The notes beneath the pieces were generated by a model. That model saw only the letters and a list, made by a program, of their open reading frames with translations. It searched no databases and was not told the DNA's origin. Below are positions 13,549 to 62,062 of a DNA stretch of 64,000 bases, one piece after another (position 1 is the stretch's first letter; each line of letters begins with the position of its first letter). Location of the stretch: contig JBBTWH010000003.1 of assembly GCA_038062835.1 (NCBI GenBank), forward strand, positions 2,666 to 66,665, written 5' to 3'. The stretch comes from Patescibacteria group bacterium (GTDB lineage: Bacteria > Patescibacteriota > Patescibacteriia > SG8-24 > DYFX01). The translations under genes and the position numbers were made by a program.

Positions 13549-13642
13549 TTCCCCCTCTTGAAGCAAGAGGGGCAGGGGGAGTTATGCTCGAGGGGATAAC
13601 CCCTCCGGCCTTCGGCCACCTCCCCTTGCGTCAAGGGGAGGA
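13549..13642. repeat. GC hairpin repeat unit (family copy 1) between xseA and xseB
   Basis: TCCCCCTCTTGAAGCAAGAGGGGCAGGGGGAGTT...GAGGGGATAACCCCTC...GGCCTTCGGCC...CCTCCCCTTGCGTCAAGGGGAGG; last hairpin encloses the xseA stop. Confidence 0.6.
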
Positions 13643-15900: not shown

Positions 15901-15957
15901 TGCTTCAAGAGGGGGATTCGTTTTTCCTCCCCTTGAAGCAAGGGGAGGCGGGAGGGG
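15901..15957. repeat. GC hairpin repeat (family copy, partial)
   Basis: CCTCCCCTTGAAGCAAGGGGAGGCGGGAGGGGTTATTCGG resembles the module-A consensus. Confidence 0.5.
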
Positions 15958-18331: not shown

Positions 18332-18351
18332 CCGCCCTTTACAGGGGCGGA
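18332..18351. repeat. Mini hairpin of the GC hairpin family (CCGCCCCT-ttac-AGGGGCGG) in the divergent promoter region
   Basis: 8-bp inverted repeat nested in a larger imperfect stem (CGTATCGT/ACGATACG). Confidence 0.4.
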
Positions 18352-24017: not shown

Positions 24018-24035
24018 TCCGCGAGACCCTCCAAC

Positions 24036-24063
24036 CTCCCCTATACAGGGGAGGATTTTTTTA
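24036..24063. terminator. Bidirectional terminator between convergent genes (hairpin-family element)
   Basis: CCTCCCCT-atac-AGGGGAGG followed by TTTTTTTAT. Confidence 0.6.
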
Positions 24064-27678: not shown

Positions 27679-27697
27679 ATCTGCCACCGTACCTTTT

Positions 27698-44156: not shown

Positions 44157-45809
44157 CTAGGTACCCGTGGGCAACAGGTTCTTGTCGTGGTCGATGGTCG
44201 GGACGCGGCTGCGCTCGGCTTCCGGCTCGTAATCGAAGACGGACTGGATGGCCGGTCCGACGCGGTAGTTGATGAAGAACGCCTCCGAAATGTCGTCGAT
44301 CTTGGTGTTCCATTCCGGGCCGTAGAGGCCCTCCGCGACCGCTTCAGACGTCACGTGCCGCAGGAGTCCGTTACGGCTCACGGCGTAGATCTTAGGATCG
44401 GTCTGGATCTTCAGCATCCTGTAGCCCGGACGGTACGTGACGTTGCCTCCGAGCTGATAGCGCGCCATCTCGTCGCGGCCGATGACGCGGACGGTCGGGG
44501 TGACGGGGAACCACGAACGGAACGTCTTCTCGTTCGGGAAGACGTAGCGGCGTCCGTCACCCGCCAGATAATAGACGGCGGAAGAAGCGGCGGTCTTGAT
44601 CAGACGTCCGCGCCACGATGGGGACTCGGGGAGCGGCGCGGGCGGATGTCCGCCGCCCAAGAGCGCGGCCTGGACGGCCTTGACGGCCGCGGCCGCATCG
44701 ACTTGTCCGGCGCCGAGATGCCCCGCGTACGGGCCGTTCAGCTGGTTCACGTCCTTGGAGGTCGCGCGCAGGACGTCGCGCAGGGCGTCGGCGTCGAGAG
44801 TCGGATCCATCGACGCGACGAGCGCGGCCACGCCGGAGACGACCGGCGCCGAGAGCGACGAGCCGAACCAGGAATCGCCGTAGGCCTGGTCGAAGCCGGA
44901 GATGGCGGGGCGATATGCCTGGGTCGTGAAGAAGCTCTCGCCAGGGGCGGAGATGCCGACGCAATCGGAACCGTAGCTGGAGAAGCTCGACTTCGCGCCG
45001 TTGCGGTCGAGCGAGGCGACGCCGAGGACGAGCCGCTCGCCGTTCGGTCCGCGATAGCAGGCGGGATACGACGGATAGATGTTGAGATCGCCTCCCTTGT
45101 CGGTGTCGCCTTCGTTGCCCGCGGCTGCGACGACGAGTATGCCGGCGTCGTGCGCCGCGCGCAGCGCGTCGGCGAGGGTCTGGCTGTAGTTCTGTCCGGT
45201 GAAGCTGACGTTGATGACTTTGGCCTTGGCCGCGACGGCGTAGCGGATGGCGCGCACGACTCCGAGCGTGTTGCCTGATCCGTCGGCATCGAGGACGCGC
45301 AGCGGCATGATGCCGACGTTCCAGTTGATGCCGACGATGCCTTCGGCGTTCCCGCCGGCGGCACCGATGATGCCCGCGACGAGCGTGCCGTGGTTCGCGC
45401 CGTCTTTGGCGCTGCCGGCACCGATTTCCGGATTCGGATCTGAATCGCCGTCGACGAAATCCCAGCCCCGCGCATCGTCGACGTAGCCGTTGCGGTCGTC
45501 GTCGATGCCGTTGCCGGCTATCTCGCCCGGATTCCTCCAGATGCGGTCGCGCAGGTCCGGGTGCATGAGGTCCACGCCTGAATCGAGCACGGCCACCGTG
45601 ACCGTCGGCGAGCCCTTGGCGAAATCCCAGGCTTCGGGAAGCCTGACGGCGTTCAGGTACCACTGCTCGCCGAAAAGCGGATCGTCAGGCACGGCGGCCA
45701 GGACAGGCTGGATGATGAAAGCGAAAAACAGGGCCGTCGTCGCGGCATATCGCGCAAAAACCTCGTAAATACGGCATTTTCCCATGCTTTTTTGTCCTGA
45801 GATTGCCAT
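44157..45809 (-). CDS. Subtilisin-like (S8) serine protease with C-terminal roughly 140-aa module shared with the giant surface proteins
   Basis: Catalytic D (VAVLDSGVD), H (HGTLVAGIIGA), S (GSSLSAPVVSGVAAL); signal peptide; C-term AVYYLAGDGRRYVFPN...GGNVTYRPGYRMLKIQTDPKIYAVSRNGLLRHVTSE; alternative start MGKCRIY at about 45785. Confidence 0.85.
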   Translation of the reverse strand: MAISGQKSMGKCRIYEVFARYAATTALFFAFIIQPVLAAVPDDPLFGEQWYLNAVRLPEAWDFAKGSPTVTVAVLDSGVDLMHPDLRDRIWRNPGEIAGNGIDDDRNGYVDDARGWDFVDGDSDPNPEIGAGSAKDGANHGTLVAGIIGAAGGNAEGIVGINWNVGIMPLRVLDADGSGNTLGVVRAIRYAVAAKAKVINVSFTGQNYSQTLADALRAAHDAGILVVAAAGNEGDTDKGGDLNIYPSYPACYRGPNGERLVLGVASLDRNGAKSSFSSYGSDCVGISAPGESFFTTQAYRPAISGFDQAYGDSWFGSSLSAPVVSGVAALVASMDPTLDADALRDVLRATSKDVNQLNGPYAGHLGAGQVDAAAAVKAVQAALLGGGHPPAPLPESPSWRGRLIKTAASSAVYYLAGDGRRYVFPNEKTFRSWFPVTPTVRVIGRDEMARYQLGGNVTYRPGYRMLKIQTDPKIYAVSRNGLLRHVTSEAVAEGLYGPEWNTKIDDISEAFFINYRVGPAIQSVFDYEPEAERSRVPTIDHDKNLLPTGT

Positions 45810-45844
45810 CAGTGTAGCCGAAGGCGATGCGCTTCACAAGCGTC

Positions 45845-48529: not shown

Positions 48530-51180
48530 TGGATGATCATGCCCGGGGCGACGACAGGGAGCCCTCTCACTTCGCGGCCGTCCAGCGGCGCGGCGTTGCC
48601 GGAGTCCGAGTCCATCCAGAGGAACTCCTCGGCGCCGAACAGCTCGACCCCGAGGCTCCTCTGTCCGACAGGGAAGGCGCTCGTCCTCAGGCCGAGCGCG
48701 AAAGTCGCCGTCTCGCCGGCCTCGATCGCGAGCTCGGAACCCGAGGCGAAATCGATCTCGACGTAGCCGGCGTCGACCGTCGCGCTGTCGCGTCCTTGCG
48801 GCGTGGAGTCCTTGCCGCTCTGCGTGTACATGCCGTAGCGGATCGACGCGTCGCTCCCCTCTCCGATGACTTCAGCGCCGGAAACGGAAATCTTGCGCAG
48901 GTCGATGACGTCGTTGTCGTCGATGACGTCGCCGTCGATGTCGGCCCAGCGTTCGAGCGCATCGTTGTCCGCGCCATCCGTTCCCGCGTCGCCGGCCTTG
49001 ATGCGGAAGACCATTCGCTTCACGCGCGCGCGGCCTTCCGGTCCGGCCGTCAGCGTGAAGCGCAGGACTTCCTCGGACGCGCCGCGCGCGATGGGGCCGC
49101 TAGGCGTCGCGTAGGCCCGCGAAGCCGAAAGTTCCGTCAGCCGGAGCTGCAGGTCGGCCGCGACGTTCGAGGTCACGGCGAAACCATGGCCCGCAGCGAG
49201 ATCCGTCCCGCTGAAATCGCGGCCCTCCGTCACCGAGGCGAATCCGAAGTTCCGGTCCGCGGCGAACCGGAACCGGAGGCGCGCGCCGGATACGCTCGCA
49301 TACGATTCGACGACGTCAGCCTGGAAAGAGATGTAGGCCTTCTTGTCTTTTGGGACGTGGATGGCGAGGCCCTTGAAGAAGGCGTCGCCGCCGACGAACT
49401 CTCCCGTCACCGAGACGTTCGCGCCCTTGGCGTCGATATAGAACAGCCGGAGGGCACCGATCGGCGCGCGGTCCACGCCGGTGAACGGGAAGGTGAGGCT
49501 CGTGATGGTGAAATCGTCGTACGACGCCGCGGCGACGATGTTGCCGAGCTCGACCGGGCGGCCGACGACGGCCTTGGCGGAACTGCCGGCGAAATCGAGC
49601 GCCAGCGTACCGTGCTGGCGGACCGTCAGCGCGTACACGGGACGCGTGCCGCCGTTCGGGGCGGTCCCGTACGCCTCGACCGCGTCGCCGGAGGCGTCGA
49701 CGATGACGACGTCCTTCGCCGCGTCGACGACGTCGAAGGCGACGATGTCGGGGCGCGCCTCAATCTGGGCGTCGCGATCCAAGTCCCCGCGCAGGGCGTA
49801 GACGCCGGCCGAACCGGCGGGCAGGACGAGTGCGAGGCCCTCGAATCGCACGCGGCCGTCGTACGGCACCTCGACGGGCCCCGCGACGCGCGCGCCGGAC
49901 TGGTCATGCAAGCTGACGGCGCCGACGATATCGCGGACGCGCGTCTCGGTCCCGTTGTCCGCGTCGCCGCCCGCGAGGTAGCCGGCGCCGCCTTCCTGCT
50001 CGTCGAGATATCCCTGGAAAGCGATGGCGCGCAGCGTCTGCGTCAAAGCGGCGGCGTTGAACGTGAAAGCCGCGAGTTCGACGCTCTGGGCGCCGCGCAC
50101 CTGCGTCTTCGGACCATGGAACTCCGCAGCGGCGATCTCGAGCGCGTCCTTGCGCACCTGGACGATCCCGCCCGCGAGATCCGTCTTGGGAAGGAACGCG
50201 GCCGGACGTCCGTCCGCGCCGAAGACTTCCGCTCGCGAAGTCACGGCGATGGCGCGATACGGTTCGGCGATCGGCGTCTCCTCATCGAACGTCGCCGTCA
50301 GCCGAAGACGGGTCTCCCCTGCCGGAACCCTCAATCCGCCCGCGAATTCGAGGACGTACTCCTGATCGTCGGACGTGGACAAGGAGACGTCGAGCGTGCC
50401 GAAGACGGACGCGCCGCCGGCGTCGACGAAGCGTATCCTCGTGAGATTCGCACGGACGGAATCTCCGCGGACGAGGCCGCCCAAATCACGATCCGCGATG
50501 CCGGACAAGGCGGTCAACTTCACGGGCAGGCGCCGGATCTCGAGCGGAACCGACGTCGCGAGCAGGAGTTCCATCAGCGCGGCCTCCTTGCCGGCCGTGG
50601 CGATCGTGCTGACGGGCGCGAGGCTGAACGTCGGCGTCGAAGGCAGGACCGCCGGCGCCGCGCCCAGACGCCTGTCCTCGGAGATGGTCGGCGCCGAGGC
50701 TTTCTCGGCCGACGGGTCGAATCCGTCGCAGGCGATGATCGGATCGCCGAGGCGATAATTCGTGAAGGACTCGACTGGAACATCCTCGACAGCTCCGCGC
50801 CACGCCGAACCGTACAGGCAATCCGCGATGCCTTCCGAAGCGACGTGCCGCAAGACGCCGCCGCGCGCGACCGCGTAGGTCTTCGGGTCGGTGTCGATCT
50901 TGACCAAGCGCGTGCCGGGGCGATAGGTGACGTTCCCGCCGATGCGGCGCGACGACATCTCCGATGCCGAAATCGTCCTCACCGTGCCGAAGCCTTCGTA
51001 CCAGCTGAAGAAGACCGAGGTGCCGGTGAAGACGTAGCGCATGCCGTCGGTGCCGAGATAATAGACGGCGGGATCGGACGATGTCCTGATGAGATCCCCG
51101 GCGGAAGCGACCGAAAAAGGCTTGGGCGCGAAAAACCCGATGACGGCGAGAGCACAGACGATGAATAGCCACCGGCGCAT
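48526..51180 (-). CDS. Giant secreted surface protein, paralog 2 (about 884 aa from ATG MRRWLFIV)
   Basis: Same architecture as paralog 1; table start is a TTG; the ATG at 51180 lies 8 nt after a TGCTATACT extended -10. Confidence 0.7.
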   Translation of the reverse strand: MRRWLFIVCALAVIGFFAPKPFSVASAGDLIRTSSDPAVYYLGTDGMRYVFTGTSVFFSWYEGFGTVRTISASEMSSRRIGGNVTYRPGTRLVKIDTDPKTYAVARGGVLRHVASEGIADCLYGSAWRGAVEDVPVESFTNYRLGDPIIACDGFDPSAEKASAPTISEDRRLGAAPAVLPSTPTFSLAPVSTIATAGKEAALMELLLATSVPLEIRRLPVKLTALSGIADRDLGGLVRGDSVRANLTRIRFVDAGGASVFGTLDVSLSTSDDQEYVLEFAGGLRVPAGETRLRLTATFDEETPIAEPYRAIAVTSRAEVFGADGRPAAFLPKTDLAGGIVQVRKDALEIAAAEFHGPKTQVRGAQSVELAAFTFNAAALTQTLRAIAFQGYLDEQEGGAGYLAGGDADNGTETRVRDIVGAVSLHDQSGARVAGPVEVPYDGRVRFEGLALVLPAGSAGVYALRGDLDRDAQIEARPDIVAFDVVDAAKDVVIVDASGDAVEAYGTAPNGGTRPVYALTVRQHGTLALDFAGSSAKAVVGRPVELGNIVAAASYDDFTITSLTFPFTGVDRAPIGALRLFYIDAKGANVSVTGEFVGGDAFFKGLAIHVPKDKKAYISFQADVVESYASVSGARLRFRFAADRNFGFASVTEGRDFSGTDLAAGHGFAVTSNVAADLQLRLTELSASRAYATPSGPIARGASEEVLRFTLTAGPEGRARVKRMVFRIKAGDAGTDGADNDALERWADIDGDVIDDNDVIDLRKISVSGAEVIGEGSDASIRYGMYTQSGKDSTPQGRDSATVDAGYVEIDFASGSELAIEAGETATFALGLRTSAFPVGQRSLGVELFGAEEFLWMDSDSGNAAPLDGREVRGLPVVAPGMIIQ

Positions 51181-51187
51181 ATGAATG

Positions 51188-51199
51188 AAGTATAGCAAA
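51188..51199 (-). promoter_or_regulatory. Extended -10 TTTGCTATACTT 8 nt upstream of the giant paralog 2 ATG
   Basis: Identical to the element at 39286..39297. Confidence 0.45.
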
Positions 51200-51310
51200 T
51201 CTGACTGCGGGCGGCGGCCGAAACGCTTCGTGACGAAAATGCGACACCTGTCGCAAAACGGTACACGAGGGTTTTTAGCGGGGTTTTTTGAGGATGGATG
51301 AAGGAAAGAG

Positions 51311-51338
51311 AAAACCCCCTCGTTGCGGAGGGGGTTTT
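51311..51338. terminator. Bidirectional intrinsic terminator (AAAACCCCCTCGTTGCGGAGGGGGTTTT)
   Basis: Perfect hairpin flanked by A- and T-runs; 15 nt after giant paralog 3 stop. Confidence 0.7.
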
Positions 51339-51352
51339 CGTTCTCGGGATTT

Positions 51353-54300
51353 TTACGGCATCAGGACGCTCTGGGCGTCGGTCGGGAGGACTTCGACGTA
51401 GAGGCCGTTGGTCCAGTCGTCGGACGCGGCGGCGTCGGCGGCGTCGTCCGTGGCTCCGCTGACGTCGTTATGCGGGATGGCCGAGTTGTCGGACCAGGCG
51501 AAGTTGTAGATCGCGGTCGCGGCATTGGTACCGTCGAGGTCGTCGACGCCATCGGCATCCACGGCGACGCTGGCGAGTTCGCCGGTGACGAGGTCCGTGT
51601 CGGACGCGATGTTCGTGATGAGCGAGTGGTTGGAGGCCGCGCCCGCGACCGTGAGCACGAGCTCGTAGGTCTTGGAAGCGCCAGCCGAGATGACCTGCTC
51701 ACTGGTGAAGCGGCTCTGGAACGTGCAGGCGGTGCCGCCGTTCGATGCGCAGCCGATCGACTGCGTGGTCGTGCCTGAGATATGCGCCCCCTGGCCGACC
51801 TCGCGGACGGCCGACTGGCCGCCGCCGTTCGCGATGAGCATGCCCGCGTTCGACTTGGTGACCGCCCATTGGATGGCCTTGAGCGAAACCTGCTCGGCGA
51901 CGTCCGCCGTGACCGTGATGCGCGAGAGGACCATCGTGCCGTTGGTGAGCGTGGACGTCGGGAGCGACGCCAGGCTGACGGTCGGCTTGGTCTTGCGGAG
52001 GACCTTGTTGCGACCCGTGACGTCCGTCGTGGCGATCGTGGAGACCACCGTGCTGGAGCCAGTACCGCGGTACTCGAAGGTACCGGCGGTCGGGGTCGTG
52101 AGGTCTGTCGTGATCTGGAGGTCAGCGCCCGAAGTGGCGCCGCCGGAGATCGAGTTCAGGATGGCCTTGACCGTGAGGGTCTTGGAGGCATCCTTCGGAA
52201 CCACGAAGTTGAAGCCCGAGAAGTCGGCGTTCTGGCCGGACATCGGGACCGGACCGGCGACGAGCGCGGCCCCGTCGTAGAGACTCATGCTGACGACGCT
52301 GTTCTGGACCGCGCCCACGAGCGAGATACGGATCTTGGTCTGCTTCAGTTCTTCGTTGGCGGCCGTGAGGCGGATCTTGCCGAGCACAGCGGTGGTGTTG
52401 GCGAGGACGAGGCCTGCTTCGGACTCGGTGTCGTCCGGAGCGATCTGGTACGTCATCGTGCCGGAGTTCGCGGTCGTCAGGACCACGCTCGGCGTGCCGT
52501 TGATCGGGAAGGAGGCGGCGGCGAAGGAGACGCTGTTGCCGACGGCGTCCTGGACCGTGGCGTCCGTGTTGGCGACGACCTTGAAGGCGATGCGCTCCGC
52601 GTTCGAGTTCAGGTAGGCGCCGTTCGAGAGGTCGCAATACAGCAGACCTGTCGCGCCGATGGAATCGATGTCCCAGTCCAGTCCGGCGAAGGTCATCACG
52701 CCGCCGGTGCCGGAAGTCGGACTCTTCGGCTGGCCGCGCATCGCTCCGGTCGCGGCATCGATCAGCCAGCAGGAAGTGATGACGTCGGAGACGGAGACCG
52801 TGCCGGATACGTCGACGTCCTGGCCCTGCACGTAGTCGGAGGAACCGTCAGCGTCGATGAAACCCTTGATCGTCAAAGACGACAGCTTCGTGACCGTGCC
52901 GGTCTCAGAGCCGAACGAAAGGCCTAGCGCGAGAATGGAGGTCGCGCCCTTCACGTACGACTGCGAGACGGCGAGGCTATTGAGGCCGGCGCCGAGATAC
53001 GCGGAATACATCGTCTGCGCGAAACCGGCCATATCGCCCGACGGGACGACGTCCGATGACGGCGTCAAGAAGGTAGAGTTATCGGTATTACGAAGGTCGG
53101 ACGTGCCGAACGCGAGGCGCGTAGCCGTGACCGACTCGCCGCTCGTGATGGAGGTCGAGGCGTCCGCCGTGACGGCGAACTCATAGACGACTCCCGGTTC
53201 GAGCGACTGGACGTCGGTGAACGTCAGCGTCTGGTTCAGGTCGTTGGCGCCGGCGTCGCCCGTGCCGGAGAGGTCGGACGGACCCCACCAGGCGGCGCCG
53301 GAAGTCGTATTGATGATTTTTACGTCGGTGTAGTTCGGCGTGGAGGTGTTGATGAGGCCGCTGGCGCCCGCGCCGGAGGTGCTGGCGGTGAGCTTGATCT
53401 GCATGCGGCGGACTTCCGTGCGGTTCTGGACGACCATCGTGAAGCGCAGGAGCTCGGCGTCCTTAGCGTAGGTCGCGCGGTCGGTCGGGAACGGACCCTT
53501 GAGCGCGACCGTGACCGGACCCGCTTCCACCGTCGAGTACGAGCAGTCGCCAGCCGAGCTGGTGCAGCTGTCGCCGTCGTAGGCGGTGCGGGTGACGGTG
53601 ACGCCCTGGCCGAAGGTCTGACCGACGCCGCGGACGTCCGAGGACTCTTCGGTGTAGAGCTTCAGGCTGTCAGCGGCGCGAGCGCCGCCGCCGATGTCGC
53701 CGTAGACCTGGAAGGTCTTGGTGGCGCCCTTCTCGAGCAGCATGCCCGGAGCGGAGAGGGAGAACGTCGCGCGGAGGTTGGCGTCGAAGCTAGCCGCCGT
53801 CGCGATCGTGAGACCCGCCTGCTTGAGCTTGAGGTTCGTGAGGTTGGCCGCGGAGAGGTTGCCACCCTGGAAGATGGTCAAGCGCTCGAAGCGGACGTCT
53901 TCGGAGGAGCCGGCGGCGACCGTGAACTCGGCGATCTTCGCCTCCATCTCGCCGGCCTTGGGGGCCGTGATGGTGCCGGTCTTGGCGATGGTGAGAGAAC
54001 CCACCGTCGTGCCAGCCAGGGTGAAGTTGTTGCCGGTGAACGGAGAGCCGGAGAGCTGCGTGGTTCCGGACATCGCCTTGGAGAGTTCCATGGCGTGGAC
54101 GTTGCCGGCAGCCGCGCCCGTCGCGATGTCGACGGCGACCCACAGGGTGCGGGTCTGGCCGGCGGCGAGCGAGAGGTTGAGGCCCGTGAAGGTGACCTCG
54201 TTGGTGGACGAGTTGACGGAGCGGCCCGTGGTCAGACGGGAAGAGCCCTCGTACAGGTACACCGAGGAGAGGTCGGTCGTGGCGCCGGGGCCGACGCGGC

Positions 54301-55012
54301 GGAGGGTGACGGAGTCAGCCACCATCGCGGAGCCGCCGTTGTTCGAGACGTTGAACTTCAGGAAGTTCACGCCCGTCGCGCCCTTCGGAAGGGTCGCGCC
54401 AGCCGGCGAGTCAGAGGCGAGCGAGACGGAAGCCGTGCCCGAGACGCCAGCGGTCGACAAGTTCTTGTCGGCGTTGATCGACTGGGACGAGCTCATCTCG
54501 GCCGTCTTGTTGTAGTCGGAGCAAGACGCGTTGATGGCGGCGCCGACGGAGTAGTTCGTGAAGAACGCGTCCGAGACGTCGTGAATCATCGTGTTCCAGG
54601 CCGAGCCGTACAGGGTGACGGCGCAGGCCTCGGAAGGCACGTGGCGAAGGACGCCGCCGTGCGCGATCGCGTAGGTCTTCGGGTCAGACTGGATCTTGAG
54701 CATCAGCACGCCCGGGCGATAGGTGACGTTGCCACCGATCTGGATGGACGCGAGGTCAGCGTCGGAGATGGTCATGACGGACGAGAAGTCCGCGTACCAG
54801 GTCTTGTAGGCCTTGTCGTTGGTGAACACGTAGCGCTTTCCGTCGGAACCGCAGTAGTACACCGCGGGGAGGGAACCCTTGATCAAGCTACCGCTCGTGC
54901 AGCCGGCGGCAGACGCTTTCAAGGGAGCGACCAGGACGGACGCCATCATCGACCAAAGGATGGTCGAGAGGACGATGCCCACGGTCAAGCTTTTTCGGAA
55001 CGTGTCTGACAT
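51353..55012 (-). CDS. Giant secreted surface protein, paralog 3 (1219 aa)
   Basis: Signal peptide MSDTFRKSLTVGIVLSTILWSMMASVLVAPLKASAAG; shared N-terminal module; about 490 aa identical to paralog 4. Confidence 0.75.
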   Translation of the reverse strand: MSDTFRKSLTVGIVLSTILWSMMASVLVAPLKASAAGCTSGSLIKGSLPAVYYCGSDGKRYVFTNDKAYKTWYADFSSVMTISDADLASIQIGGNVTYRPGVLMLKIQSDPKTYAIAHGGVLRHVPSEACAVTLYGSAWNTMIHDVSDAFFTNYSVGAAINASCSDYNKTAEMSSSQSINADKNLSTAGVSGTASVSLASDSPAGATLPKGATGVNFLKFNVSNNGGSAMVADSVTLRRVGPGATTDLSSVYLYEGSSRLTTGRSVNSSTNEVTFTGLNLSLAAGQTRTLWVAVDIATGAAAGNVHAMELSKAMSGTTQLSGSPFTGNNFTLAGTTVGSLTIAKTGTITAPKAGEMEAKIAEFTVAAGSSEDVRFERLTIFQGGNLSAANLTNLKLKQAGLTIATAASFDANLRATFSLSAPGMLLEKGATKTFQVYGDIGGGARAADSLKLYTEESSDVRGVGQTFGQGVTVTRTAYDGDSCTSSAGDCSYSTVEAGPVTVALKGPFPTDRATYAKDAELLRFTMVVQNRTEVRRMQIKLTASTSGAGASGLINTSTPNYTDVKIINTTSGAAWWGPSDLSGTGDAGANDLNQTLTFTDVQSLEPGVVYEFAVTADASTSITSGESVTATRLAFGTSDLRNTDNSTFLTPSSDVVPSGDMAGFAQTMYSAYLGAGLNSLAVSQSYVKGATSILALGLSFGSETGTVTKLSSLTIKGFIDADGSSDYVQGQDVDVSGTVSVSDVITSCWLIDAATGAMRGQPKSPTSGTGGVMTFAGLDWDIDSIGATGLLYCDLSNGAYLNSNAERIAFKVVANTDATVQDAVGNSVSFAAASFPINGTPSVVLTTANSGTMTYQIAPDDTESEAGLVLANTTAVLGKIRLTAANEELKQTKIRISLVGAVQNSVVSMSLYDGAALVAGPVPMSGQNADFSGFNFVVPKDASKTLTVKAILNSISGGATSGADLQITTDLTTPTAGTFEYRGTGSSTVVSTIATTDVTGRNKVLRKTKPTVSLASLPTSTLTNGTMVLSRITVTADVAEQVSLKAIQWAVTKSNAGMLIANGGGQSAVREVGQGAHISGTTTQSIGCASNGGTACTFQSRFTSEQVISAGASKTYELVLTVAGAASNHSLITNIASDTDLVTGELASVAVDADGVDDLDGTNAATAIYNFAWSDNSAIPHNDVSGATDDAADAAASDDWTNGLYVEVLPTDAQSVLMP
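53519..54987. repeat. 1469-bp segment identical to 58028..59496 (5' parts of giant paralogs 3 and 4)
   Basis: Identical antisense table ORFs 53718..54515 and 58227..59024 (offset 4509) plus my own line comparison of both edges. Confidence 0.85.
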
Positions 55013-55110
55013 ACAAACGGGCCCAGGTTAGGGGTAAATGCCCGTCCAGTGTAGCAGGTACGGAAACGAAAAAGGTGTGGGTAAGACCCGCACCTTCTCC
55101 CCCGCTCCGT

Positions 55111-55413
55111 TCAGGACAGGACCAGCCGTTTGTCGGCGATCGTGATGACGTCCTTTTTTTGGAGAACGTTGATCAAGGAGTTGACCTTGCCGTCGGTACG
55201 ACCGAGGCTGCGATCAAGAGTCTCCAGGCGATGATCGACGCGGTCGAGACGGGTTTCGACGCCATCAAGACGAGTTTCGACGCCATCAAGACGAGTTTCG
55301 ACACGGTCGAGACGGCCCCGAATATCCTCGAATTGCGGCGTGATGTTGTGCTCGATGACGTTCCCCAACTCCTCGCCGATCAGCTTGATGTCTTCGGGTG
55401 TAAGCATGCCCAT
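55111..55413 (-). CDS. Small coiled-coil protein with tandem heptads RLDGVET (paralog of 31263..31643)
   Basis: MGMLTPEDIKLIGEELG...TRLDGVETRLDGVETRLDRV; conserved promoter; start trimmed to MGM. Confidence 0.55.
   Translation of the reverse strand: MGMLTPEDIKLIGEELGNVIEHNITPQFEDIRGRLDRVETRLDGVETRLDGVETRLDRVDHRLETLDRSLGRTDGKVNSLINVLQKKDVITIADKRLVLS
55243..55312. repeat. In-frame 21-bp tandem repeat (GTTTCGACGCCATCAAGACGA, 2 full copies plus partial flanking copies) inside gene 55111..55413
   Basis: Direct reading of 55243-55312. Confidence 0.6.
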
Positions 55414-55436
55414 ATGGTTAGAGGATAACATATGGG

Positions 55437-55467
55437 GTCCTAGCACAGGCAATATGTGGGGTGTCAA
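55437..55467 (-). promoter_or_regulatory. Conserved promoter TTGACACCC...TGCTAGGAC (paralog of 31668..31697)
   Basis: Same -35/extended -10 and spacing. Confidence 0.5.
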
Positions 55468-55498
55468 CGCTTAGAGTCGGCTCCGGCCTTGCATAAAC

Positions 55499-55823
55499 AA
55501 TCCCCCTCTTTGTGAAAGAGGGGGCAGGGGGAGTTAGGTCGGAGGGCCATCCGAGCTAACCCCTCCGCCCTTCGGGCACCTCCCCTTTCGCAAAGGGGAG
55601 GACGTTTAAAAGAATCCCCCTCTTTGTGAAAGAGGGGGCAGGGGGAGTTATTCGGAGGGGCGTGGGCCTACGATTCGGAGATAACCCCTCCGCCCTTCGG
55701 GCACCTCCCCTTTCGTAAAGGGGAGGACGACTGACAGAATCCCCCTCTTTGTGAAAGAGGGGGCAGGGGGAGTTATTCGGGGAGGACGTATAAACACAAA
55801 CCCCCTCCTTGCGGAGGGGGTTT
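55499..55823. repeat. Tandem array of 3 GC hairpin repeat units (about 115-125 bp period; third unit truncated and ending in a terminator-like hairpin)
   Basis: AATCCCCCTCTTTGTGAAAGAGGGGGCAGGGGGAGTTATTCGG...ATAACCCCTCCGCCCTTCGGGCACCTCCCCTTTCGTAAAGGGGAGGACG repeated; GUGA, UUCG and CGNA-type loops. Confidence 0.8.
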
Positions 55824-55900
55824 GCTCTTTCCGGGCCGCTTAGGCGAACCCTTGCGTACCGGCTAGATCCAGGCCGAAGCCCGAGGCGAGACTCGTCCTA

Positions 55901-58900
55901 TTACGGAGCAAGGGTCGTCTGAGCGTCGGTCGGGAGGACCTTGACGTACAGGCCGTTGGTCCAGTCGTTCGACGCAGCCGCGTCTTCGCCTTCGGCAATG
56001 GTGCCGGCGACGTCGTTGTGCGGGATGGCCGAGTTGTCGGACCAGTGGATGCTGAAGCCGGCAGTCGCAGTGTTCGTGCCATCGAGGTCGTCGATGGAGT
56101 CACCCGCGAGACCGTCGACGTCGTCGAGTTCACCCGTGACCAGCGCGGAGTCCGCGGCGATCGTGGAGGTGATGCTGTCGTTCGAGCCGACGCCCGTCGT
56201 CGTGACGGCGAGTTCATACGTCTTGGACGTACCCGCGGCGATCACCTGTTCAGAGGCGAACGTGAAGCGGACCGTGCAAGCGTCGGACTCGAGCACATCG
56301 CAGTCGTCGTCGCCGGCCTCGTCGAGGTCAGCGGTGCCCGAGATGGAGGAGCCGCCGACCTCGCGGACCACCGGGGTCGCGATGCCGAGCGCGGCGCCGC
56401 GAGCGAGGTTCCACATGATCGACTTGACCGAGACCTGTTCCGCGCTGTCAGCCGTGAGGGTGATGCGCGAGACCACGGGCGTGCCGTTGGTGAGCGTGGA
56501 GCTCGGGAGCGAGGCCAAGCTGACGGTCGGCTTGGTCTTGCGGAGGATCTTCGTGCGCATCGTGACGTCCGCACCGGTGGCCTGGGTGGTCACGACGGTC
56601 GAGGACGAGGTGCCACGGTACTCGAACGTGCCAGCGGCAGCCGAGGTCGTGTCAGCGATGAGCGCGAGGTCGGTACCCGTGGTGGCACCGCCCGAGATCG
56701 TGTTCAGGACGCCCTTGACCGTGAGGGTCTTGGAGCCGTCCTTCGGCACGACGAAGTTGAAGCCGGAGAAGTCAGCGTTGCCACCGGTGAGCGGAACCGG
56801 ACCAGCGACGAGCGCGGCCCCATCGTAGAGGCTCATGCTGATGACGTTGTTCGAGTTCGCCGAGGTGACGAGGCCGACGCGAAGCTTGGTCTGCTTCAGC
56901 TCTTCGTTGAGAGCCGTGAGGCGGATCTTGCCGAGGACAACCGTGTTGCCCGCGACCACGAGGCCCGCTTCGGACTCCGTGTCGTCCGGAGCGATGATGT
57001 ACGACATCGTGCCGGTGTTCTGGATGGTGTGGACCACCGTGGCGGCAGAGGCGTTGACCGTGCCGGTTTCGGTGATCGCGTTGCCATCCGCATCCTGCGA
57101 CGTGACATCGCTCGCGGCCTGGACGGAGAAGCCGACCGTGTCGGCGTCAGCGCCGTCGAAGGCGGAGTTCGAGATGTCGCAGTTGAGCTTCAGGCTCTTG
57201 GTCTGGCCAGCCGCCACCACGAGGTTGAGGCCGGTGAACTCAAGGAGACCGCCAGAGCCTTCCGTCGAGGAAGCGGTCGGAGACTTGGCCGTGCCAAGCA
57301 TCGTCGCGCCATCCATGAGGCGGCACTGGGTGATGACGTCGCGGACCGCGGCGTCATCCGTGTTGTCGTCGAAGCCCTGGATCATCGTGGTGCCGCCATC
57401 GGCGTCGATCCAGCCCGTGGCCGTGATCGCCGTGATGGTGACAGGCGCGGCATCGCCGGCCTTCAGGTTGATGCCAGTGAAGTCGACGTTCGAGGAGCCC
57501 TTGATGAAGGTCTGGCTGACCGGGGTCGAGCCAAGCGAGTTCGTCATGGACGCCACACGGACCGTCATCGCGTTACCCAACAGCGAGCCGCCCGGGACGA
57601 CGTCGGTGGACGGCGTCAGGAACGTGCTGTTGTCGAGGTTGCGGAGGTCGGAGGTGCTGAAGGCTTCGAGGGTCATGGTGACCGTGTCAGCATCGTCAGC
57701 GCCGTCCTCCACGTCGAGCGAGACGGAGAACGTGTACAGGACGCCGGCCTGGAGGGTCTGGACGTCGTTGAAGACGAGATCCTCGGAGCCGTCATCTTCC
57801 GTCACGTCCTTCGGGCCCCACCAGACGGAACCGGAGGCGACGTTGGTCACCTTGATGTCCGTGAGGTTAGCCGTAGTCGTCATGAGGTCGGTGCCGTCAA
57901 TCTGCATGCGCAGGTTGCGGACTTCGACGTTGGACTGGGCCACCGCGGTGAAGCGGAAGACCTCAATCTCGTTCCCCTTCTCGCTGATGTCCTTCGAGGA
58001 AGGGCCCAGGAAGTTGAGGGTCACCTGTCCCGCTTCCACCGTCGAGTACGAGCAGTCGCCAGCCGAGCTGGTGCAGCTGTCGCCGTCGTAGGCGGTGCGG
58101 GTGACGGTGACGCCCTGGCCGAAGGTCTGACCGACGCCGCGGACGTCCGAGGACTCTTCGGTGTAGAGCTTCAGGCTGTCAGCGGCGCGAGCGCCGCCGC
58201 CGATGTCGCCGTAGACCTGGAAGGTCTTGGTGGCGCCCTTCTCGAGCAGCATGCCCGGAGCGGAGAGGGAGAACGTCGCGCGGAGGTTGGCGTCGAAGCT
58301 AGCCGCCGTCGCGATCGTGAGACCCGCCTGCTTGAGCTTGAGGTTCGTGAGGTTGGCCGCGGAGAGGTTGCCACCCTGGAAGATGGTCAAGCGCTCGAAG
58401 CGGACGTCTTCGGAGGAGCCGGCGGCGACCGTGAACTCGGCGATCTTCGCCTCCATCTCGCCGGCCTTGGGGGCCGTGATGGTGCCGGTCTTGGCGATGG
58501 TGAGAGAACCCACCGTCGTGCCAGCCAGGGTGAAGTTGTTGCCGGTGAACGGAGAGCCGGAGAGCTGCGTGGTTCCGGACATCGCCTTGGAGAGTTCCAT
58601 GGCGTGGACGTTGCCGGCAGCCGCGCCCGTCGCGATGTCGACGGCGACCCACAGGGTGCGGGTCTGGCCGGCGGCGAGCGAGAGGTTGAGGCCCGTGAAG
58701 GTGACCTCGTTGGTGGACGAGTTGACGGAGCGGCCCGTGGTCAGACGGGAAGAGCCCTCGTACAGGTACACCGAGGAGAGGTCGGTCGTGGCGCCGGGGC
58801 CGACGCGGCGGAGGGTGACGGAGTCAGCCACCATCGCGGAGCCGCCGTTGTTCGAGACGTTGAACTTCAGGAAGTTCACGCCCGTCGCGCCCTTCGGAAG

Positions 58901-59530
58901 GGTCGCGCCAGCCGGCGAGTCAGAGGCGAGCGAGACGGAAGCCGTGCCCGAGACGCCAGCGGTCGACAAGTTCTTGTCGGCGTTGATCGACTGGGACGAG
59001 CTCATCTCGGCCGTCTTGTTGTAGTCGGAGCAAGACGCGTTGATGGCGGCGCCGACGGAGTAGTTCGTGAAGAACGCGTCCGAGACGTCGTGAATCATCG
59101 TGTTCCAGGCCGAGCCGTACAGGGTGACGGCGCAGGCCTCGGAAGGCACGTGGCGAAGGACGCCGCCGTGCGCGATCGCGTAGGTCTTCGGGTCAGACTG
59201 GATCTTGAGCATCAGCACGCCCGGGCGATAGGTGACGTTGCCACCGATCTGGATGGACGCGAGGTCAGCGTCGGAGATGGTCATGACGGACGAGAAGTCC
59301 GCGTACCAGGTCTTGTAGGCCTTGTCGTTGGTGAACACGTAGCGCTTTCCGTCGGAACCGCAGTAGTACACCGCGGGGAGGGAACCCTTGATCAAGCTAC
59401 CGCTCGTGCAGCCGGCGGCAGACGCTTTCAAGGGAGCGACCAGGACGGACGCCATCATCGACCAAAGGATGGTCGAGAGGACGATGCCCACGGTCAGAGC
59501 CTTGCGGCTCATTTTCAGGACTTCGGTCAT
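55901..59530 (-). CDS. Giant secreted surface protein, paralog 4 (about 1209 aa from MTEVLKMSRK)
   Basis: Same signal peptide and module as paralog 3, divergent central region, conserved C-terminus (NGLYVKVLPTDAQTTLAP). Confidence 0.75.
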   Translation of the reverse strand: MTEVLKMSRKALTVGIVLSTILWSMMASVLVAPLKASAAGCTSGSLIKGSLPAVYYCGSDGKRYVFTNDKAYKTWYADFSSVMTISDADLASIQIGGNVTYRPGVLMLKIQSDPKTYAIAHGGVLRHVPSEACAVTLYGSAWNTMIHDVSDAFFTNYSVGAAINASCSDYNKTAEMSSSQSINADKNLSTAGVSGTASVSLASDSPAGATLPKGATGVNFLKFNVSNNGGSAMVADSVTLRRVGPGATTDLSSVYLYEGSSRLTTGRSVNSSTNEVTFTGLNLSLAAGQTRTLWVAVDIATGAAAGNVHAMELSKAMSGTTQLSGSPFTGNNFTLAGTTVGSLTIAKTGTITAPKAGEMEAKIAEFTVAAGSSEDVRFERLTIFQGGNLSAANLTNLKLKQAGLTIATAASFDANLRATFSLSAPGMLLEKGATKTFQVYGDIGGGARAADSLKLYTEESSDVRGVGQTFGQGVTVTRTAYDGDSCTSSAGDCSYSTVEAGQVTLNFLGPSSKDISEKGNEIEVFRFTAVAQSNVEVRNLRMQIDGTDLMTTTANLTDIKVTNVASGSVWWGPKDVTEDDGSEDLVFNDVQTLQAGVLYTFSVSLDVEDGADDADTVTMTLEAFSTSDLRNLDNSTFLTPSTDVVPGGSLLGNAMTVRVASMTNSLGSTPVSQTFIKGSSNVDFTGINLKAGDAAPVTITAITATGWIDADGGTTMIQGFDDNTDDAAVRDVITQCRLMDGATMLGTAKSPTASSTEGSGGLLEFTGLNLVVAAGQTKSLKLNCDISNSAFDGADADTVGFSVQAASDVTSQDADGNAITETGTVNASAATVVHTIQNTGTMSYIIAPDDTESEAGLVVAGNTVVLGKIRLTALNEELKQTKLRVGLVTSANSNNVISMSLYDGAALVAGPVPLTGGNADFSGFNFVVPKDGSKTLTVKGVLNTISGGATTGTDLALIADTTSAAAGTFEYRGTSSSTVVTTQATGADVTMRTKILRKTKPTVSLASLPSSTLTNGTPVVSRITLTADSAEQVSVKSIMWNLARGAALGIATPVVREVGGSSISGTADLDEAGDDDCDVLESDACTVRFTFASEQVIAAGTSKTYELAVTTTGVGSNDSITSTIAADSALVTGELDDVDGLAGDSIDDLDGTNTATAGFSIHWSDNSAIPHNDVAGTIAEGEDAAASNDWTNGLYVKVLPTDAQTTLAP
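58028..59496. repeat. Second copy of the 1469-bp identical block
   Basis: See 53519..54987. Confidence 0.85.
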
Positions 59531-59723
59531 AAGTTGAGAACCTTTCTTCAAGTTTAGTGCCGACAGTACGGCCTTGCGGCCTCGACCTTGTGATACTGCC
59601 AGTGCCCCAAAGGGGCGGGCCCGTCCGGAGATTTCCTCCTGGATCGGAGCGCGGGGCGTACTCACATAGAGGAGTAGGCCACGAGCTTCGATCCAAGAAG
59701 CTTCCTGGACGGACGGTGGATAT

Positions 59724-61500: not shown

Positions 61501-61567
61501 GAACTCCCCCTTGGCACCCCGAATAACTCCCCCTGCCCCCTCTTTCGCAAAGAGGGGGATTTTTTTA
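61501..61567. repeat. GC hairpin repeat (module A, reverse orientation) ending in a plus-strand intrinsic terminator
   Basis: AACTCCCCCTGCCCCCTCTTTCGCAAAGAGGGGGATTTTTTT. Confidence 0.65.
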
Positions 61568-61575
61568 GGCCTATT

Positions 61576-61616
61576 TGACAAAATGTGGTTGTTTGTCTAC
61601 ACTGGAGTAGACAAAT
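61576..61616 (+). promoter_or_regulatory. Promoter (TTGACA, 17 nt, TACACT) overlapped by the 9-bp inverted repeat TTTGTCTAC-n6-GTAGACAAA upstream of the HTH gene
   Basis: Direct reading; dyad centred on the -10. Confidence 0.45.
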
Positions 61617-61628
61617 AGATTATCCCCC

Positions 61629-61928
61629 ATGGACTCCCCTAAACACATCATTCGCGTCTCAGTTTCGGAGGCGGCCAAGCTCTTCGGCATTTCCACGCGC
61701 ACGCTCCGCCGCGCCATCGCCGACGGCGAGGTGGCCTATGTGGTGGTGCGGGGAAGGTATAAGCTGAACTTCGAGAGCCTCGTGAAGTGGTCGCAGGTCC
61801 GCCCGACCGTGCGCAACAAGCTGGCCACGACCGGCATCGGCCAATTCGTGGAGCAATGGAAGATCAGGAACAAATTGTTCAGTCCCAATCCGAAGGTGTT
61901 CGAGAAGAAGGATGGGGAGGAGAAGTAG
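61629..61928 (+). CDS. Helix-turn-helix DNA-binding protein (excisionase/MerR-like HTH_17)
   Basis: SVSEAAKLFGISTRTLRRAIADGEV; 99 aa; lower-GC context. Confidence 0.6.
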   Translation: MDSPKHIIRVSVSEAAKLFGISTRTLRRAIADGEVAYVVVRGRYKLNFESLVKWSQVRPTVRNKLATTGIGQFVEQWKIRNKLFSPNPKVFEKKDGEEK

Positions 61929-61942
61929 AGCGGCGATTCGGA

Positions 61943-62036
61943 AATAACCCCTCCGCCCTGCGGGCACCTCCCCTTTCGTAAAGGGGAGGGTATACAAAGG
62001 ATCACCCTCTTTGTGAAAGAGGGGGCTGGGGGAGTT
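61943..62036. repeat. GC hairpin repeat (module B followed by module A)
   Basis: ATAACCCCTCCGCCCTGCGGGCACCTCCCCTTTCGTAAAGGGGAGG...ATCACCCTCTTTGTGAAAGAGGGGGCTGGGGGAGTT. Confidence 0.65.
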
Positions 62037-62062
62037 CGATCCGGGCTGGGTCGCCCCGCCGA

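Follow-up and report, generated by a model that had tools for sequence, protein, structure and literature searches.

Palindromic repeat units at five loci

The window, by which we mean the whole 64-kb stretch of DNA analysed here, contains 11 complete units and one half unit of a repeat family, spread over five loci beside genes that include xseA, xseB, a Kelch-repeat gene and an ECF sigma-factor gene (Table 1); 0.03 units would be expected by chance. A finder for hairpins with a mirrored tail returned exactly the same 11 units, against 0.03 per simulated window. Searched as strings, the 43-nt module A has 3 matches with at most 3 mismatches in the window and the 49-nt module B has 2, with 0 expected for each, and the diverged copies were added by blastn-short and a repeat search.

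An earlier note on this DNA had read these modules as a family rather than as chance, and both the copies found elsewhere and a covariation test clearly favour a real family. The competing view, that the elements resemble one another by chance as generic GC-rich terminators do, fits three of the sites listed in that note (18332-18351, 51311-51338 and 55793-55823), which are indeed ordinary, unrelated terminators: simple hairpins that lack a tail and show no blast similarity. For the 11 units, chance resemblance is already refuted by the string matches, by their number and by the hundreds of relatives outside the window, and we give this view practically no probability. Modules A and B were otherwise confirmed where the note had placed them, with the exception of a site at 24036; because the tail at 24034-24055 matches at only 6 of 8 positions, this hairpin is at most a decayed relative of B. 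The array at 55499-55823, described before as a triple tandem array, really consists of two and a half A+B pairs, the hairpin at 55793-55823 being a separate terminator outside it; Tandem Repeats Finder reports a period of 125, 1.8 copies and 94% matches over 55553-55780.

Some units enclose the stop codon of a gene, as had been noticed before (that of xseA in a B hairpin and that of the Kelch-repeat gene in a B tail), and one A-B pair does lie inside the xseA-xseB operon. Such stop-codon and terminator roles are real but incidental. Most units do not qualify as intrinsic terminators, since a T run is missing, and several are found ahead of genes or within an operon; the pattern of a hairpin followed by a T run is seen at 61536-61565 (plus strand) and 24034-24065 alone.

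Table 1 Repeat units and adjoining features in the window.
Locus	Feature	Position	Strand	Remarks
13551-13585 (A) + 13595-13641 (B)	Unit A (variant)	13551-13585	+	CCCCCTCTT-GAAGC-AAGAGGGG-CA-GGGGGAGTTA; mirror score 7/8; minus-strand G-rich arm 7 nt upstream of xseB ATG (13543)
	Unit B with mini-hairpin (GGCCTTCGGCC) in linker	13595-13641	-	Mirror score 8/8; tail-to-tail with the A unit at 13551, 14 nt between
	xseA stop codon	13631-13633		At loop/arm junction of the B hairpin 13595-13641
15901-15920 (truncated A) + 15926-15960 (B)	Truncated A unit	15901-15920	-	C arm and loop only; head-to-head with B at 15926-15960
	Unit B, no mini-hairpin	15926-15960	+	Linker CG; mirror score 8/8
	Kelch-repeat gene	15958-17175	-	Stop codon 15958-15960 is the TTA of the B tail at 15926-15960
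55502-55775 (A-B-A-B-A array)	Unit A, first in array	55502-55536	+	Mirror score 8/8
	Unit B with mini-hairpin GCCCTTCGGGC	55556-55601	-	Mirror score 8/8; tail-to-tail with A at 55502, 22-nt spacer
	Unit A	55616-55650	+	Head-to-head with B at 55556, 14-nt spacer
	Unit B with mini-hairpin	55681-55726	-	Tail-to-tail with A at 55616, 33-nt spacer
	Unit A, last in array	55741-55775	+	Followed by an unrelated terminator hairpin
	Terminator hairpin	55793-55823		Belongs to gene 55901-59665 (minus strand)
61524-61558 (A, inverted)	Unit A, inverted	61524-61558	-	About 85 nt ahead of the minus-strand ECF sigma-factor gene (61440-60748); plus-strand reading gives a hairpin and then a T run
61944-62037 (B-A)	Unit B with mini-hairpin GCCCTGCGGGC	61944-61989	-	Directly after stop of HTH_17 gene (61629-61928)
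	Unit A variant (CACCCTCTT)	62003-62037	+	Linker CT; head-to-head with B at 61944, 13-nt spacer
	Possible decayed B-like unit, outside the five loci	24034-24055	-	Stem matches B (CCTCCCCT/AGGGGAGG); partial C-rich tail ACCCTCC, 6/8 by eye; terminator of udk-like gene

Architecture of the units

Each unit consists of a hairpin of 9-10 bp formed by a C arm and a G arm, a short linker, and a G-rich tail, the mirror image of the G arm. The linker, or second loop, has 2 nt in A; in B it has either 2 nt or 12 nt folded as a mini-hairpin, which is predicted to position the tail along the G arm. Modules A and B are one kind of unit in opposite orientation, with coordinated shifts in the C arm, the G arm and the tail. 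The third segment is an exact mirror of the purine arm (AAGAGGGGG mirrored by GGGGGAGTT in A, AAGGGGAGG by GGAGGGGTT in B), at 8 of 8 positions in 10 units of the window and 7 of 8 in one. Across diverse families, the G arm matches its own tail with a mirror score of 7.52 out of 9, compared to 6.30 +/- 0.07 for shuffled partners, and none of 500 shuffles reaches 7.52. Given this exact mirror, a purine-motif triplex could form within one strand. The units could adopt such a fold in cells, as a candidate structure whose hairpin part is predicted; the mirror symmetry could instead reflect recognition by a protein.

Folding with DNA parameters gives 10-bp stems with 3-nt loops and z-scores of -3.4 to -6.0. 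Of 119 A units, 108 have a Watson-Crick pair at the tenth stem position (T-A 55, A-T 47, C-G 4, G-C 2), and the hairpin is under selection. The loops, on which the earlier description in terms of GNRA and UUCG tetraloops had relied, have 3 nt in the DNA folds and vary freely among relatives, so that this description fails. The units reach from -15 to +20 around the core, the conserved extension being the G-rich tail, with no conserved head.

In the window each adjacent pair joins an A unit with an opposed B unit, with spacers of 8-14 nt head-to-head and 14-33 nt tail-to-tail, and this alternation of A and B builds BIME-like mosaics that include the A-B-A-B-A array. Neighbouring units in relatives form 52 head-to-head pairs, 21 tail-to-tail pairs and about 8 pairs in the same orientation. 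The B-A pairs, which are about 85-95 nt long and so below 300 bp, are bounded by TAACCCCTCC...GGGGGAGTTA as terminal inverted repeats, as is expected of a MITE.

Hairpins as stable as these might also act as RNA, either as a structured small RNA, which the earlier note had suggested, or as cis-regulatory RNA that serves as a terminator or stabiliser or sequesters ribosome-binding sites. T runs follow some copies (61536-61565 and 24036), and in 16 of 118 relatives, compared to 6 of 118 in the control, a start codon follows the G arm or tail after 0-12 nt, as does that of xseB in the window. Rfam, however, holds no match at gathering thresholds, a permissive E-value scan giving only sub-threshold, mutually overlapping matches; the units face both ways relative to transcription, and the loops are not conserved. 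Mismatches of the C.A type (49) are about as common in the stems as those of the T.G type (38), so neither strand is favoured as RNA by a wobble bias. A simple RNA hairpin has no use for the conserved mirror tail, and the purine-motif triplex reportedly does not occur in RNA (PMC4666352); moreover, Maher's group saw neither promoter nor terminator activity of PIT elements. The mismatch statistics and the mirror tail point to an element that acts at the level of DNA and not of RNA. The small-RNA proposal is accordingly unsupported, and we regard an RNA function of either kind as very unlikely.

Relatives in other genomes

Beyond the window, units are found in many genomes. The 19-mer core occurs at more than 116 loci in many phyla (Patescibacteria, Proteobacteria, Nitrospirota, Planctomycetota, Omnitrophota, Chlamydiota, Bacteroidota/Chlorobi and Cloacimonadota), with several loci per MAG, and the unit sequence is near-identical across phyla that span 32-65% GC. 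A scan of viral contigs with the core 19-mer gave no match and thus no sign of a phage origin. A literature search with the exact sequence of the window family returned no paper.

The units belong to a class that is known, as BoxC, PIT or TM_ECO intrastrand triplex motifs (Bergler 1992; Hoyne & Maher 2000; Holder et al. 2015, PMC4666352). Repeats of this class, described since 1992, form triplexes in vitro and have been tied to genome instability, while their origin and spread were left open. TM_ECO has the pattern CCCTCNCCC-N3-6-GGGNGAGGG-N3-GGGNGAGGG, is present in 23 copies in K-12, which has 18 TM loci, and pairs a type A with a type B in inverted configuration (PMC4666352). All 11 window units combine a hairpin of C-rich arm, loop and G-rich arm with a mirrored second G-rich segment, and they share with the class its dimensions (a 9-nt C-rich arm, a loop of 3-6 nt, a 9-nt G-rich arm, a short second loop), its two subtypes in inverted pairs, which in the window account for all adjacent pairs, and its intergenic, multi-copy occurrence, patchy among strains, with no transposase nearby. 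Because the arms and tails in the window (CCCCCTCTT/AAGAGGGGG/GGGGGAGTT and CCTCCCCTT/AAGGGGAGG/GGAGGGGTT) differ from the TM_ECO consensus (CCCTCNCCC/GGGNGAGGG), we assign them to the same class as a separate sequence family and not to TM_ECO proper. They differ further in a second loop of 2 nt or a 12-nt mini-hairpin, in their longer alternating arrays, and in their host, a Patescibacteria MAG, with relatives in many phyla, whereas only Proteobacteria were surveyed for TM_ECO. As to triplex formation, Holder et al. found that the double-stranded form is dsDNA and not triplex, and saw no DMS protection in vivo (PMC4666352).

Association with DUF559 endonuclease genes

The 2015 survey explicitly reported no mobility gene for TM repeats (PMC4666352). 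Among the relatives of the window units there is a gene-carrying form, in which two inward-facing tails exactly bracket a gene for a DUF559 (Vsr-like PD-(D/E)XK) endonuclease of about 115 aa; the ribosome-binding site and the start codon come from the A tail (GGGGGAGTT-ATG), and the gene enters the B unit and stops there. At 11 of 116 repeat-selected loci, 12 DUF559 genes abut units or related hairpins. As an independent test, 69 DUF559 genes were picked by a core protein motif alone, and in this set 65 genes lie within 150 nt of one unit or more, while 46 are flanked by units on both sides. Upstream of the gene the tails are directed at it in 56 of 61 cases, and downstream in 53 of 57; unit density is 5.5 per kb near the gene compared to 0.21 per kb elsewhere at the same loci. 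Tails point outward around a few DUF559 genes (L032, L060, Deinococcus and Azospirillum), so the cassette geometry is not universal. At L179, B units with the GCCC-TTCG-GGGC mini-hairpin flank the DUF559 gene.

The link between gene and units also holds in cultured Neisseria, Deinococcus, Azospirillum and Sphingomonas. In E. coli the representative is ycjD, found in 3378 of 5426 genomes (62%); a decayed unit lies at the 3' end of this gene, and TM_ECO #9 follows 170 nt downstream. Searches of the literature on DUF559, ycjD, boxC and intrastrand triplexes found the BoxC/TM papers, none of them linking the class to DUF559. Profile matches of DUF559 include PDB 3HRL (7e-27) and the homing endonuclease I-Bth0305I (3R3P; 1.4e-3), which makes a nuclease role plausible from sequence, and in Caulobacter a protein with DUF559 has proved genotoxic in vivo (PMC12907096). 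This class of repeats almost always flanks the small DUF559 endonuclease gene, which may encode its long-missing partner enzyme. The linkage could instead come from units that accumulate around, or regulate, a horizontally moving gene.

A tblastn search to E = 10 found no DUF559 gene or remnant in the window, none was found in a further 8 kb of the contig either, and the source genome may lack one. A weak DUF559 match at 27689 was set aside, as it is antisense to ftsW.

Gene-less copies and insertion into a coding sequence

Among gene-less A>B arrangements, 7 of 17 spacers keep GTTATG, and within one MAG such spacers retain, in addition, the final ~10 nt of the DUF559 gene of the same MAG. At one locus (L094), a Dus gene carries two intact B-A pairs as in-frame insertions. 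The closest uninterrupted relative of this gene, only 74% identical to it, is too distant to define insertion boundaries, a target-site duplication or a filled/empty pair. The gene-carrying relative encodes a nuclease from a family not known to transpose, and a 115-aa nuclease alone cannot account for insertion at new sites.

Relation to other mobile and palindromic elements

The architecture of the window repeats also bears out part of an earlier characterisation as REP-, BIME- or MITE-like, namely short palindromes in alternating orientation, two spacer classes and multiple copies; the closer match is the BoxC/PIT/intrastrand-triplex class and not REP. Were they classical REP/BIME elements mobilised by a RAYT (Y1 HUH) transposase, one would understand both the alternating short palindromes with distinct head-to-head and tail-to-tail spacers and the presence of one nuclease gene between inverted repeat copies alongside many gene-less copies, the signature that tied REPs to RAYTs. 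But the units have a mirror-repeat tail and no GTAG-type head, the flanked gene encodes a DUF559 PD-(D/E)XK (Vsr-like) nuclease and not a Y1 transposase, and the unit sequence is kept across phyla whereas REPs are lineage-specific. A tblastn search with E. coli RayT of 1.24 Mb (the window and 208 loci) gave one weak match (5.5e-7), 4.4 kb from a partial unit, and no RAYT beside any unit. We consider mobilisation by a RAYT highly improbable.

Free-standing homing endonucleases (Vsr-like, I-Bth0305I, PDB 3R3P) offer another parallel, as small, sporadic nuclease genes with a related catalytic domain; the DUF559 gene sits precisely inside a conserved repeat, which would be a possible recognition site and homology arm. 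Unlike the contiguous 14-40 bp sites of homing endonucleases, this putative site is a structured repeat pair with a variable spacer, and the repeats that flank DUF559 genes are dispersed at many non-homologous loci. With Rickettsia palindromic elements (RPE) and MITEs (Correia, ERIC) the repeats share modules of ~85-125 bp whose inverted ends fold into hairpins, in-frame residence in protein-coding genes with the ORF intact, as in the Dus gene, and the supply of stop codons and ribosome-binding-like sequences. They differ from these in having no established target-site duplication and no known DDE transposase relative, and in a basic unit that is a single 35-45 nt triplex-type palindrome, also found alone. 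Two further candidates were rejected: an integron attC site, since the GTTRRRY core fits one copy only and there is no single long imperfect hairpin, and a CRISPR-like array, since the spacers are too short and the orientation alternates.

A proposed origin of the window repeats

We consider it probable that the window repeats are DNA-level palindromic units of the BoxC/PIT/TM class and gene-less derivatives of a DUF559 cassette, copied by way of the nuclease. We infer that the DUF559 nuclease would recognise or cut the flanking units, and that break repair or gene conversion would then copy units, with or without the gene, to unit-bearing or new sites. The copies in the window would be non-autonomous and MITE-like, either internal-deletion derivatives or empty sites of the cassette, which may have settled in intergenic positions and at the ends of genes and would bring incidental stop codons, hairpins and purine-rich, ribosome-binding-like runs there. 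The wider claim, that BoxC/triplex-motif repeats as such are the non-autonomous partners of the DUF559 endonuclease in a selfish system that crosses phyla, the arrays of the window being its gene-less footprints in a CPR genome, we put forward more tentatively, as somewhat short of an even prospect.

The units might alternatively be structural DNA useful to the host, selected for pausing of replication or transcription, for binding of nucleoid proteins as BIMEs do, or for local rearrangement, with DUF559 serving as a repair nuclease for such structures or being an unrelated gene that happens to travel within the units. Consistent with a host role, Holder et al. observed increased rearrangement at TM loci as well as polymerase stops in vitro, the window units occupy operon junctions, promoters and the ends of genes, and the Caulobacter DUF559 protein VsrA is SOS-induced and was read by its authors as a repair nuclease (PMC12907096). 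Copy number, however, varies from 1 to 29 between close E. coli strains, with none in Salmonella; the sequence is near-identical across phyla of widely different GC content; units lie in frame inside a conserved enzyme gene; and neighbouring genes fall into no prominent functional class. These features argue for selfish spread rather than a conserved host function, which we regard as unlikely.

The window adds to the BoxC class a new sequence family in a candidate-phyla-radiation bacterium, near-unchanged across many phyla, and a candidate for the missing partner in an uncharacterised endonuclease. If the proposal is true, DUF559, including YcjD of E. coli, would gain a function and the 30-year-old BoxC elements a mode of spread, in a system comparable to REP-RAYT or to a homing endonuclease with structured repeats as its home. 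For annotation, the units add stop codons, ribosome-binding-like runs and in-frame insertions of 29-30 aa, and metagenomic assemblies are broken by them.

Repeat units in the window

The two modules described in the earlier note are indeed present where it placed them and recur far above chance: at up to three mismatches the module A string has three matches in the window and the module B string two, where shuffled sequences are expected to give none. Blastn-short and a repeat search of the window added more diverged copies at 13.5, 15.9 and 62.0 kb, and with each listed site read, five loci of the window contain 11 complete units and a further half unit. The source is a Patescibacteria-group metagenome-assembled genome (MAG) from Hainich groundwater; GC content is ~65%. 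Three other hairpins on the earlier list (18332, 51311 and 55793–55823) are ordinary terminators with neither family similarity nor a tail, those at 51311 and 55793–55823 belonging to paralogous genes. The site at 24034–24055 has the B stem in common with the family; its membership is not demonstrable because the tail is only partial, which makes it a candidate at most. The "triple tandem array" placed at 55499–55823 is real as an array, although Tandem Repeats Finder gives it 1.8 copies (period 125, 94% matches) and its last hairpin lies outside the family.

Repeat units in the window, in window coordinates
Units	Position
A, B	13551–13641
half A, B	15901–15960
array A, B, A, B, A	55502–55775
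A, inverted	61524–61558
B, A	61944–62037

Units A and B follow a common plan in the same orientation, namely a C-rich arm, a loop, a G-rich arm, a linker and a G-rich tail with a terminal TTA. Specifically, unit A reads CCCCCTCTT - loop - AAGAGGGGG - CA - GGGGGAGTTA and unit B, on its own strand, CCTCCCCTT - loop - AAGGGGAGG - linker - GGAGGGGTTA, with a linker of either 2 nt (at 15926) or a 12-nt mini-hairpin (GCCC-TTCG-GGGC). The tail is the mirror image of the G arm (8/8 positions in 10 window units, 7/8 in one), T faces A at both outer mirror positions, and the lone A/T interruption, whose position differs between A and B, shifts jointly in C arm, G arm and tail. A structure-based finder, which required nothing but a pyrimidine/purine hairpin with a mirrored tail behind it, picked exactly the 11 units from the 26 such hairpins in the window, as against 0.03 in each simulated window; that the units are terminators alike by chance is a negligible prospect. 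Folded with DNA parameters, the units have 10-bp stems, 3-nt loops and energies of −10 to −14 kcal/mol (z ~−3.7), and the description of them as GNRA/UUCG-type tetraloop hairpins therefore fails.

In the window and in 116 related loci, collected through the core 19-mer of unit A, neighbouring units are nearly always opposed in orientation: 52 pairs are head-to-head (hairpins facing, tails outward, 5–14 nt apart) and 21 tail-to-tail (tails facing, 13–55 nt apart), versus ~8 pairs that share one orientation. Repetition of this alternation makes up the array at 55.5 kb. In six cases in the loci one hairpin serves two opposed units, with a C-rich tail on its left and a G-rich tail on its right, and the A−/A+ calls overlap by 23–26 nt.

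One A-B pair lies, as had been noticed, inside the xseA-xseB operon, at the junction of the two genes, with the G arm of the A hairpin 7 nt ahead of the xseB ATG. The observation that units enclose upstream stop codons also holds, since the xseA stop falls at the B loop/arm junction and that of a Kelch-repeat gene is the TTA of a B tail (15958–15960). On one side of the array is the terminator of a gene for a 1254-aa surface protein, and on the other an XhlA-like gene begins; an ECF sigma-factor gene has an inverted A upstream of it, and an HTH_17 gene is followed by a B-A pair. Units thus occur in either orientation relative to transcription. The HTH_17 gene (99 aa, excisionase-like) has, within 61524–62037, the inverted A on one side and the B-A pair on the other, and an inverted repeat around it, I5, is 88% identical over 41 nt. 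On the minus strand, 44157–59665 holds five large paralogous genes (550–1254 aa, no Pfam hit) that have a conserved N-terminal region in common (repeat families D1, D3 and D6) and look like a variable surface-protein cluster behind the ECF sigma factor and a DUF5667 gene; 51353–55012 and 55901–59665 are the two copies of a recent tandem duplication, 94% identical across 300 nt.

The units are of the BoxC/PIT class

The repeats named BoxC in 1992, PIT elements in 2000 and intrastrand triplex motifs by Holder et al. in 2015 have the pattern CCCTCNCCC-N3-6-GGGNGAGGG-N3-GGGNGAGGG, with 23 copies counted in E. coli K-12 and 3610 across 262 proteobacterial genomes (PMC4666352). Their two types occur paired in inverted configuration, copies are intergenic and patchy among strains, and the single-strand motif forms a purine-motif triplex in vitro, a triplex in vivo not having been shown (PMC4666352). 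The window units agree with this class in every structural criterion and differ from it in sequence, and an Rfam search with the window repeats gave no match. We are confident that they are BoxC/PIT-class units; the kind of repeat is known, and the sequence family and the phyla it occupies are new. The earlier proposal of a REP/BIME/MITE-like element is right about the architecture, multi-copy units of alternating orientation. REP elements with a RAYT transposase are highly improbable: unit-bearing loci totalling 1.24 Mb gave a sole RAYT-like (Y1 transposase) match (L042:4800–5135, from an Omnitrophota MAG), 4.4 kb from a partial unit.

The proposal of a structured small-RNA family, which would place the hairpins in RNA and for which Rfam offers no match, is very unlikely, because the conserved mirror tail would have no role in a plain RNA hairpin, because stem mismatches (C.A 49, T.G 38) are without bias to G.U-compatible changes on either strand, and because units point either way with respect to genes. 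Purine-motif triplexes, moreover, do not form in RNA (PMC4666352). The repeats are probably DNA-level, horizontally spreading selfish repeats, not RNA genes or host signals. Certain copies do double as terminators, as the note had said of several (the plain terminators excepted), or put purine runs ahead of start codons; in 16/118 relatives, versus 6/118 on the control side, an ORF of 80 aa or more begins 0–12 nt past the A tail. We read the terminator and purine-run effects as incidental or co-opted, and a structural DNA role useful to the host is unlikely.

Related units in other genomes

The family has further copies elsewhere and shows covariation, against the outcome that would have refuted it. 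The 19-mer AGAGGGGGCAGGGGGAGTT (G arm, linker and tail of A) is present in at least 116 stretches of a collection of species-representative genomes, where an unbiased 19-mer would, on a rough estimate, be expected only a handful of times; a scan of viral contigs gave no match. Among the matches listed, hosts are MAGs labelled Patescibacteria/CPR lineages, Delta-, Gamma- and Alphaproteobacteria, Nitrospirae, Planctomycetes, Omnitrophota, Chlamydiae, Chlorobi, Prevotella, Cloacimonadales and others, with locus GC of 32–65% and frequently several loci per MAG. Conservation runs from ~15 nt before the 19-mer to +20, giving a unit of ~36–38 nt. Loops vary, and the loop-closing pair covaries, being Watson-Crick in 108/119 A units (T-A 55, A-T 47, C-G 4, G-C 2).

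In two loci (L019, L093) the G arm, linker and tail of A are preceded by another conserved double hairpin (GTCCCGCAAACGGGATCCCGCTTCGCGGTGA) in place of the usual C arm, which suggests chimeric units or a further module type. At L096:3602–3700, in a locus of 64% GC, the 19-mer occurs without a hairpin beside tandem GGAGGGGTGGAGTGAT repeats, probably an unrelated G-rich satellite.

Units flank DUF559 nuclease genes

Examination of unit pairs 150–3000 nt apart within the 116 repeat-selected loci revealed 12 genes of ~110–130 aa, in 11 loci, that Pfam assigns to DUF559 (PF04480, E 1e-30 to 1e-34), a family of small Vsr-like endonucleases. Most abut one or two units, the exceptions being one that ends at a locus edge (L039) and one flanked by a related hairpin type (L057). 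In the commonest layout the gene occupies the tail-to-tail slot, running from hairpin-CAGGGGGAGTT|ATG into TAACCCCTCC-hairpin, and its stop codon is often within the hairpin loop.

In an independent test we aligned DUF559 cores alone and scanned metagenome contigs with a pattern from the catalytic core, which holds no repeat-encoded sequence. The 80 loci listed contain 82 genes, 69 with both flanks present; of these 69, 65 have one or more hairpin-plus-mirror-tail units no farther than 150 nt away, and 46 are so flanked on both sides. Tails face the gene upstream in 56/61 cases and downstream in 53/57, and unit density is 5.5 per kb beside the gene versus 0.21 per kb in the remainder of the same loci. 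Unit sequence goes by DUF559 clade (CCCCCTCTT/GGGGGAG; CCCTCTCCC/GGGTGAGGG, the E. coli type; CCCCCCTTT/GGGGGGAT; CCTCCCCC/GGTGGGGG) and the tail follows the G arm within each, with 7.52/9 for a unit's own tail versus 6.30 ± 0.07 for shuffled partners. The same arrangement is found in cultured Neisseria gonorrhoeae, Deinococcus proteolyticus, Azospirillum lipoferum and Sphingomonas. A physical association of this repeat class with DUF559 genes is nearly certain; literature on DUF559, ycjD, boxC and intrastrand triplexes, in a coverage without most subscription journals, yielded no connection between gene and repeat. No DUF559 gene occurs in the window or the further 8 kb of contig examined, so the window copies are gene-less.

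The second loop of the downstream unit, from G arm to tail, often has its own small GC hairpin (L147, L148, L150, L167, L179, L185, L191 and the window B units). These sequences are unrelated between DUF559 clades, making them a structural feature that recurs and not one shared by descent, and their recurrence fits a need to keep the tail beside the G arm.

Spread of the units and the E. coli gene ycjD

A tRNA-dihydrouridine synthase (Dus) ORF of another genome (L094, 3195–4370) stays open, in frame, across two intact B-A pairs, each ~87 nt or 29–30 aa (SKPLPASPFEKGEGTDTPSLQKRGQGEF and RKNNPSQPPLLQRGGALKTPSFQKRGQGEL), in loops where relatives at 74% identity have nothing; in the same two loops, repeat-like peptides also occur in several further CPR Dus orthologues. 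Of the gene-less A>B spacers, 7/17 start with an ATG straight after GTT, and those of MAG JACRNO01 end with the same ~10 nt (GCAAGACTAAC) as its DUF559 gene, as would be the expected remnant of an internal cassette deletion. Units also coincide with breaks in other assemblies of this organism (L207, L208); such breaks fall exactly at the units that bracket the HTH_17 gene, with L207 beginning at the gene itself. The loci compared defined no target duplication or filled/empty site pair. Tentatively, DUF559 may be the enzyme that recognises, cuts or propagates the units, which would then spread through nuclease-triggered repair or gene conversion, a partnership with the logic of REP-RAYT or homing systems. 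Among PDB structures the DUF559 profile hits 3HRL (7e-27) and, with a weak score of 1.4e-3, 3R3P, which is the catalytic domain of the homing endonuclease I-Bth0305I. In Caulobacter a DUF559 protein, VsrA, damages DNA in vivo (PMC12907096).

The E. coli DUF559 gene, ycjD, is carried by 3378/5426 (62%) complete E. coli genomes and adjoins fabI/envM, presumably the region in which BoxC was first described. In this region (K-12 NC_000913.3 1351150–1351830, L201:7030–7840) its 3′ end is overlapped by a decayed BoxC unit with the stop codon in the loop, and TM_ECO #9 is located 170 nt downstream. The DUF559 association could make the long-open question of what BoxC is and how it spreads directly testable in E. 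coli. Between ycjD and TM_ECO #9 lies a degenerate partial duplicate of the ycjD 3′ end plus unit.
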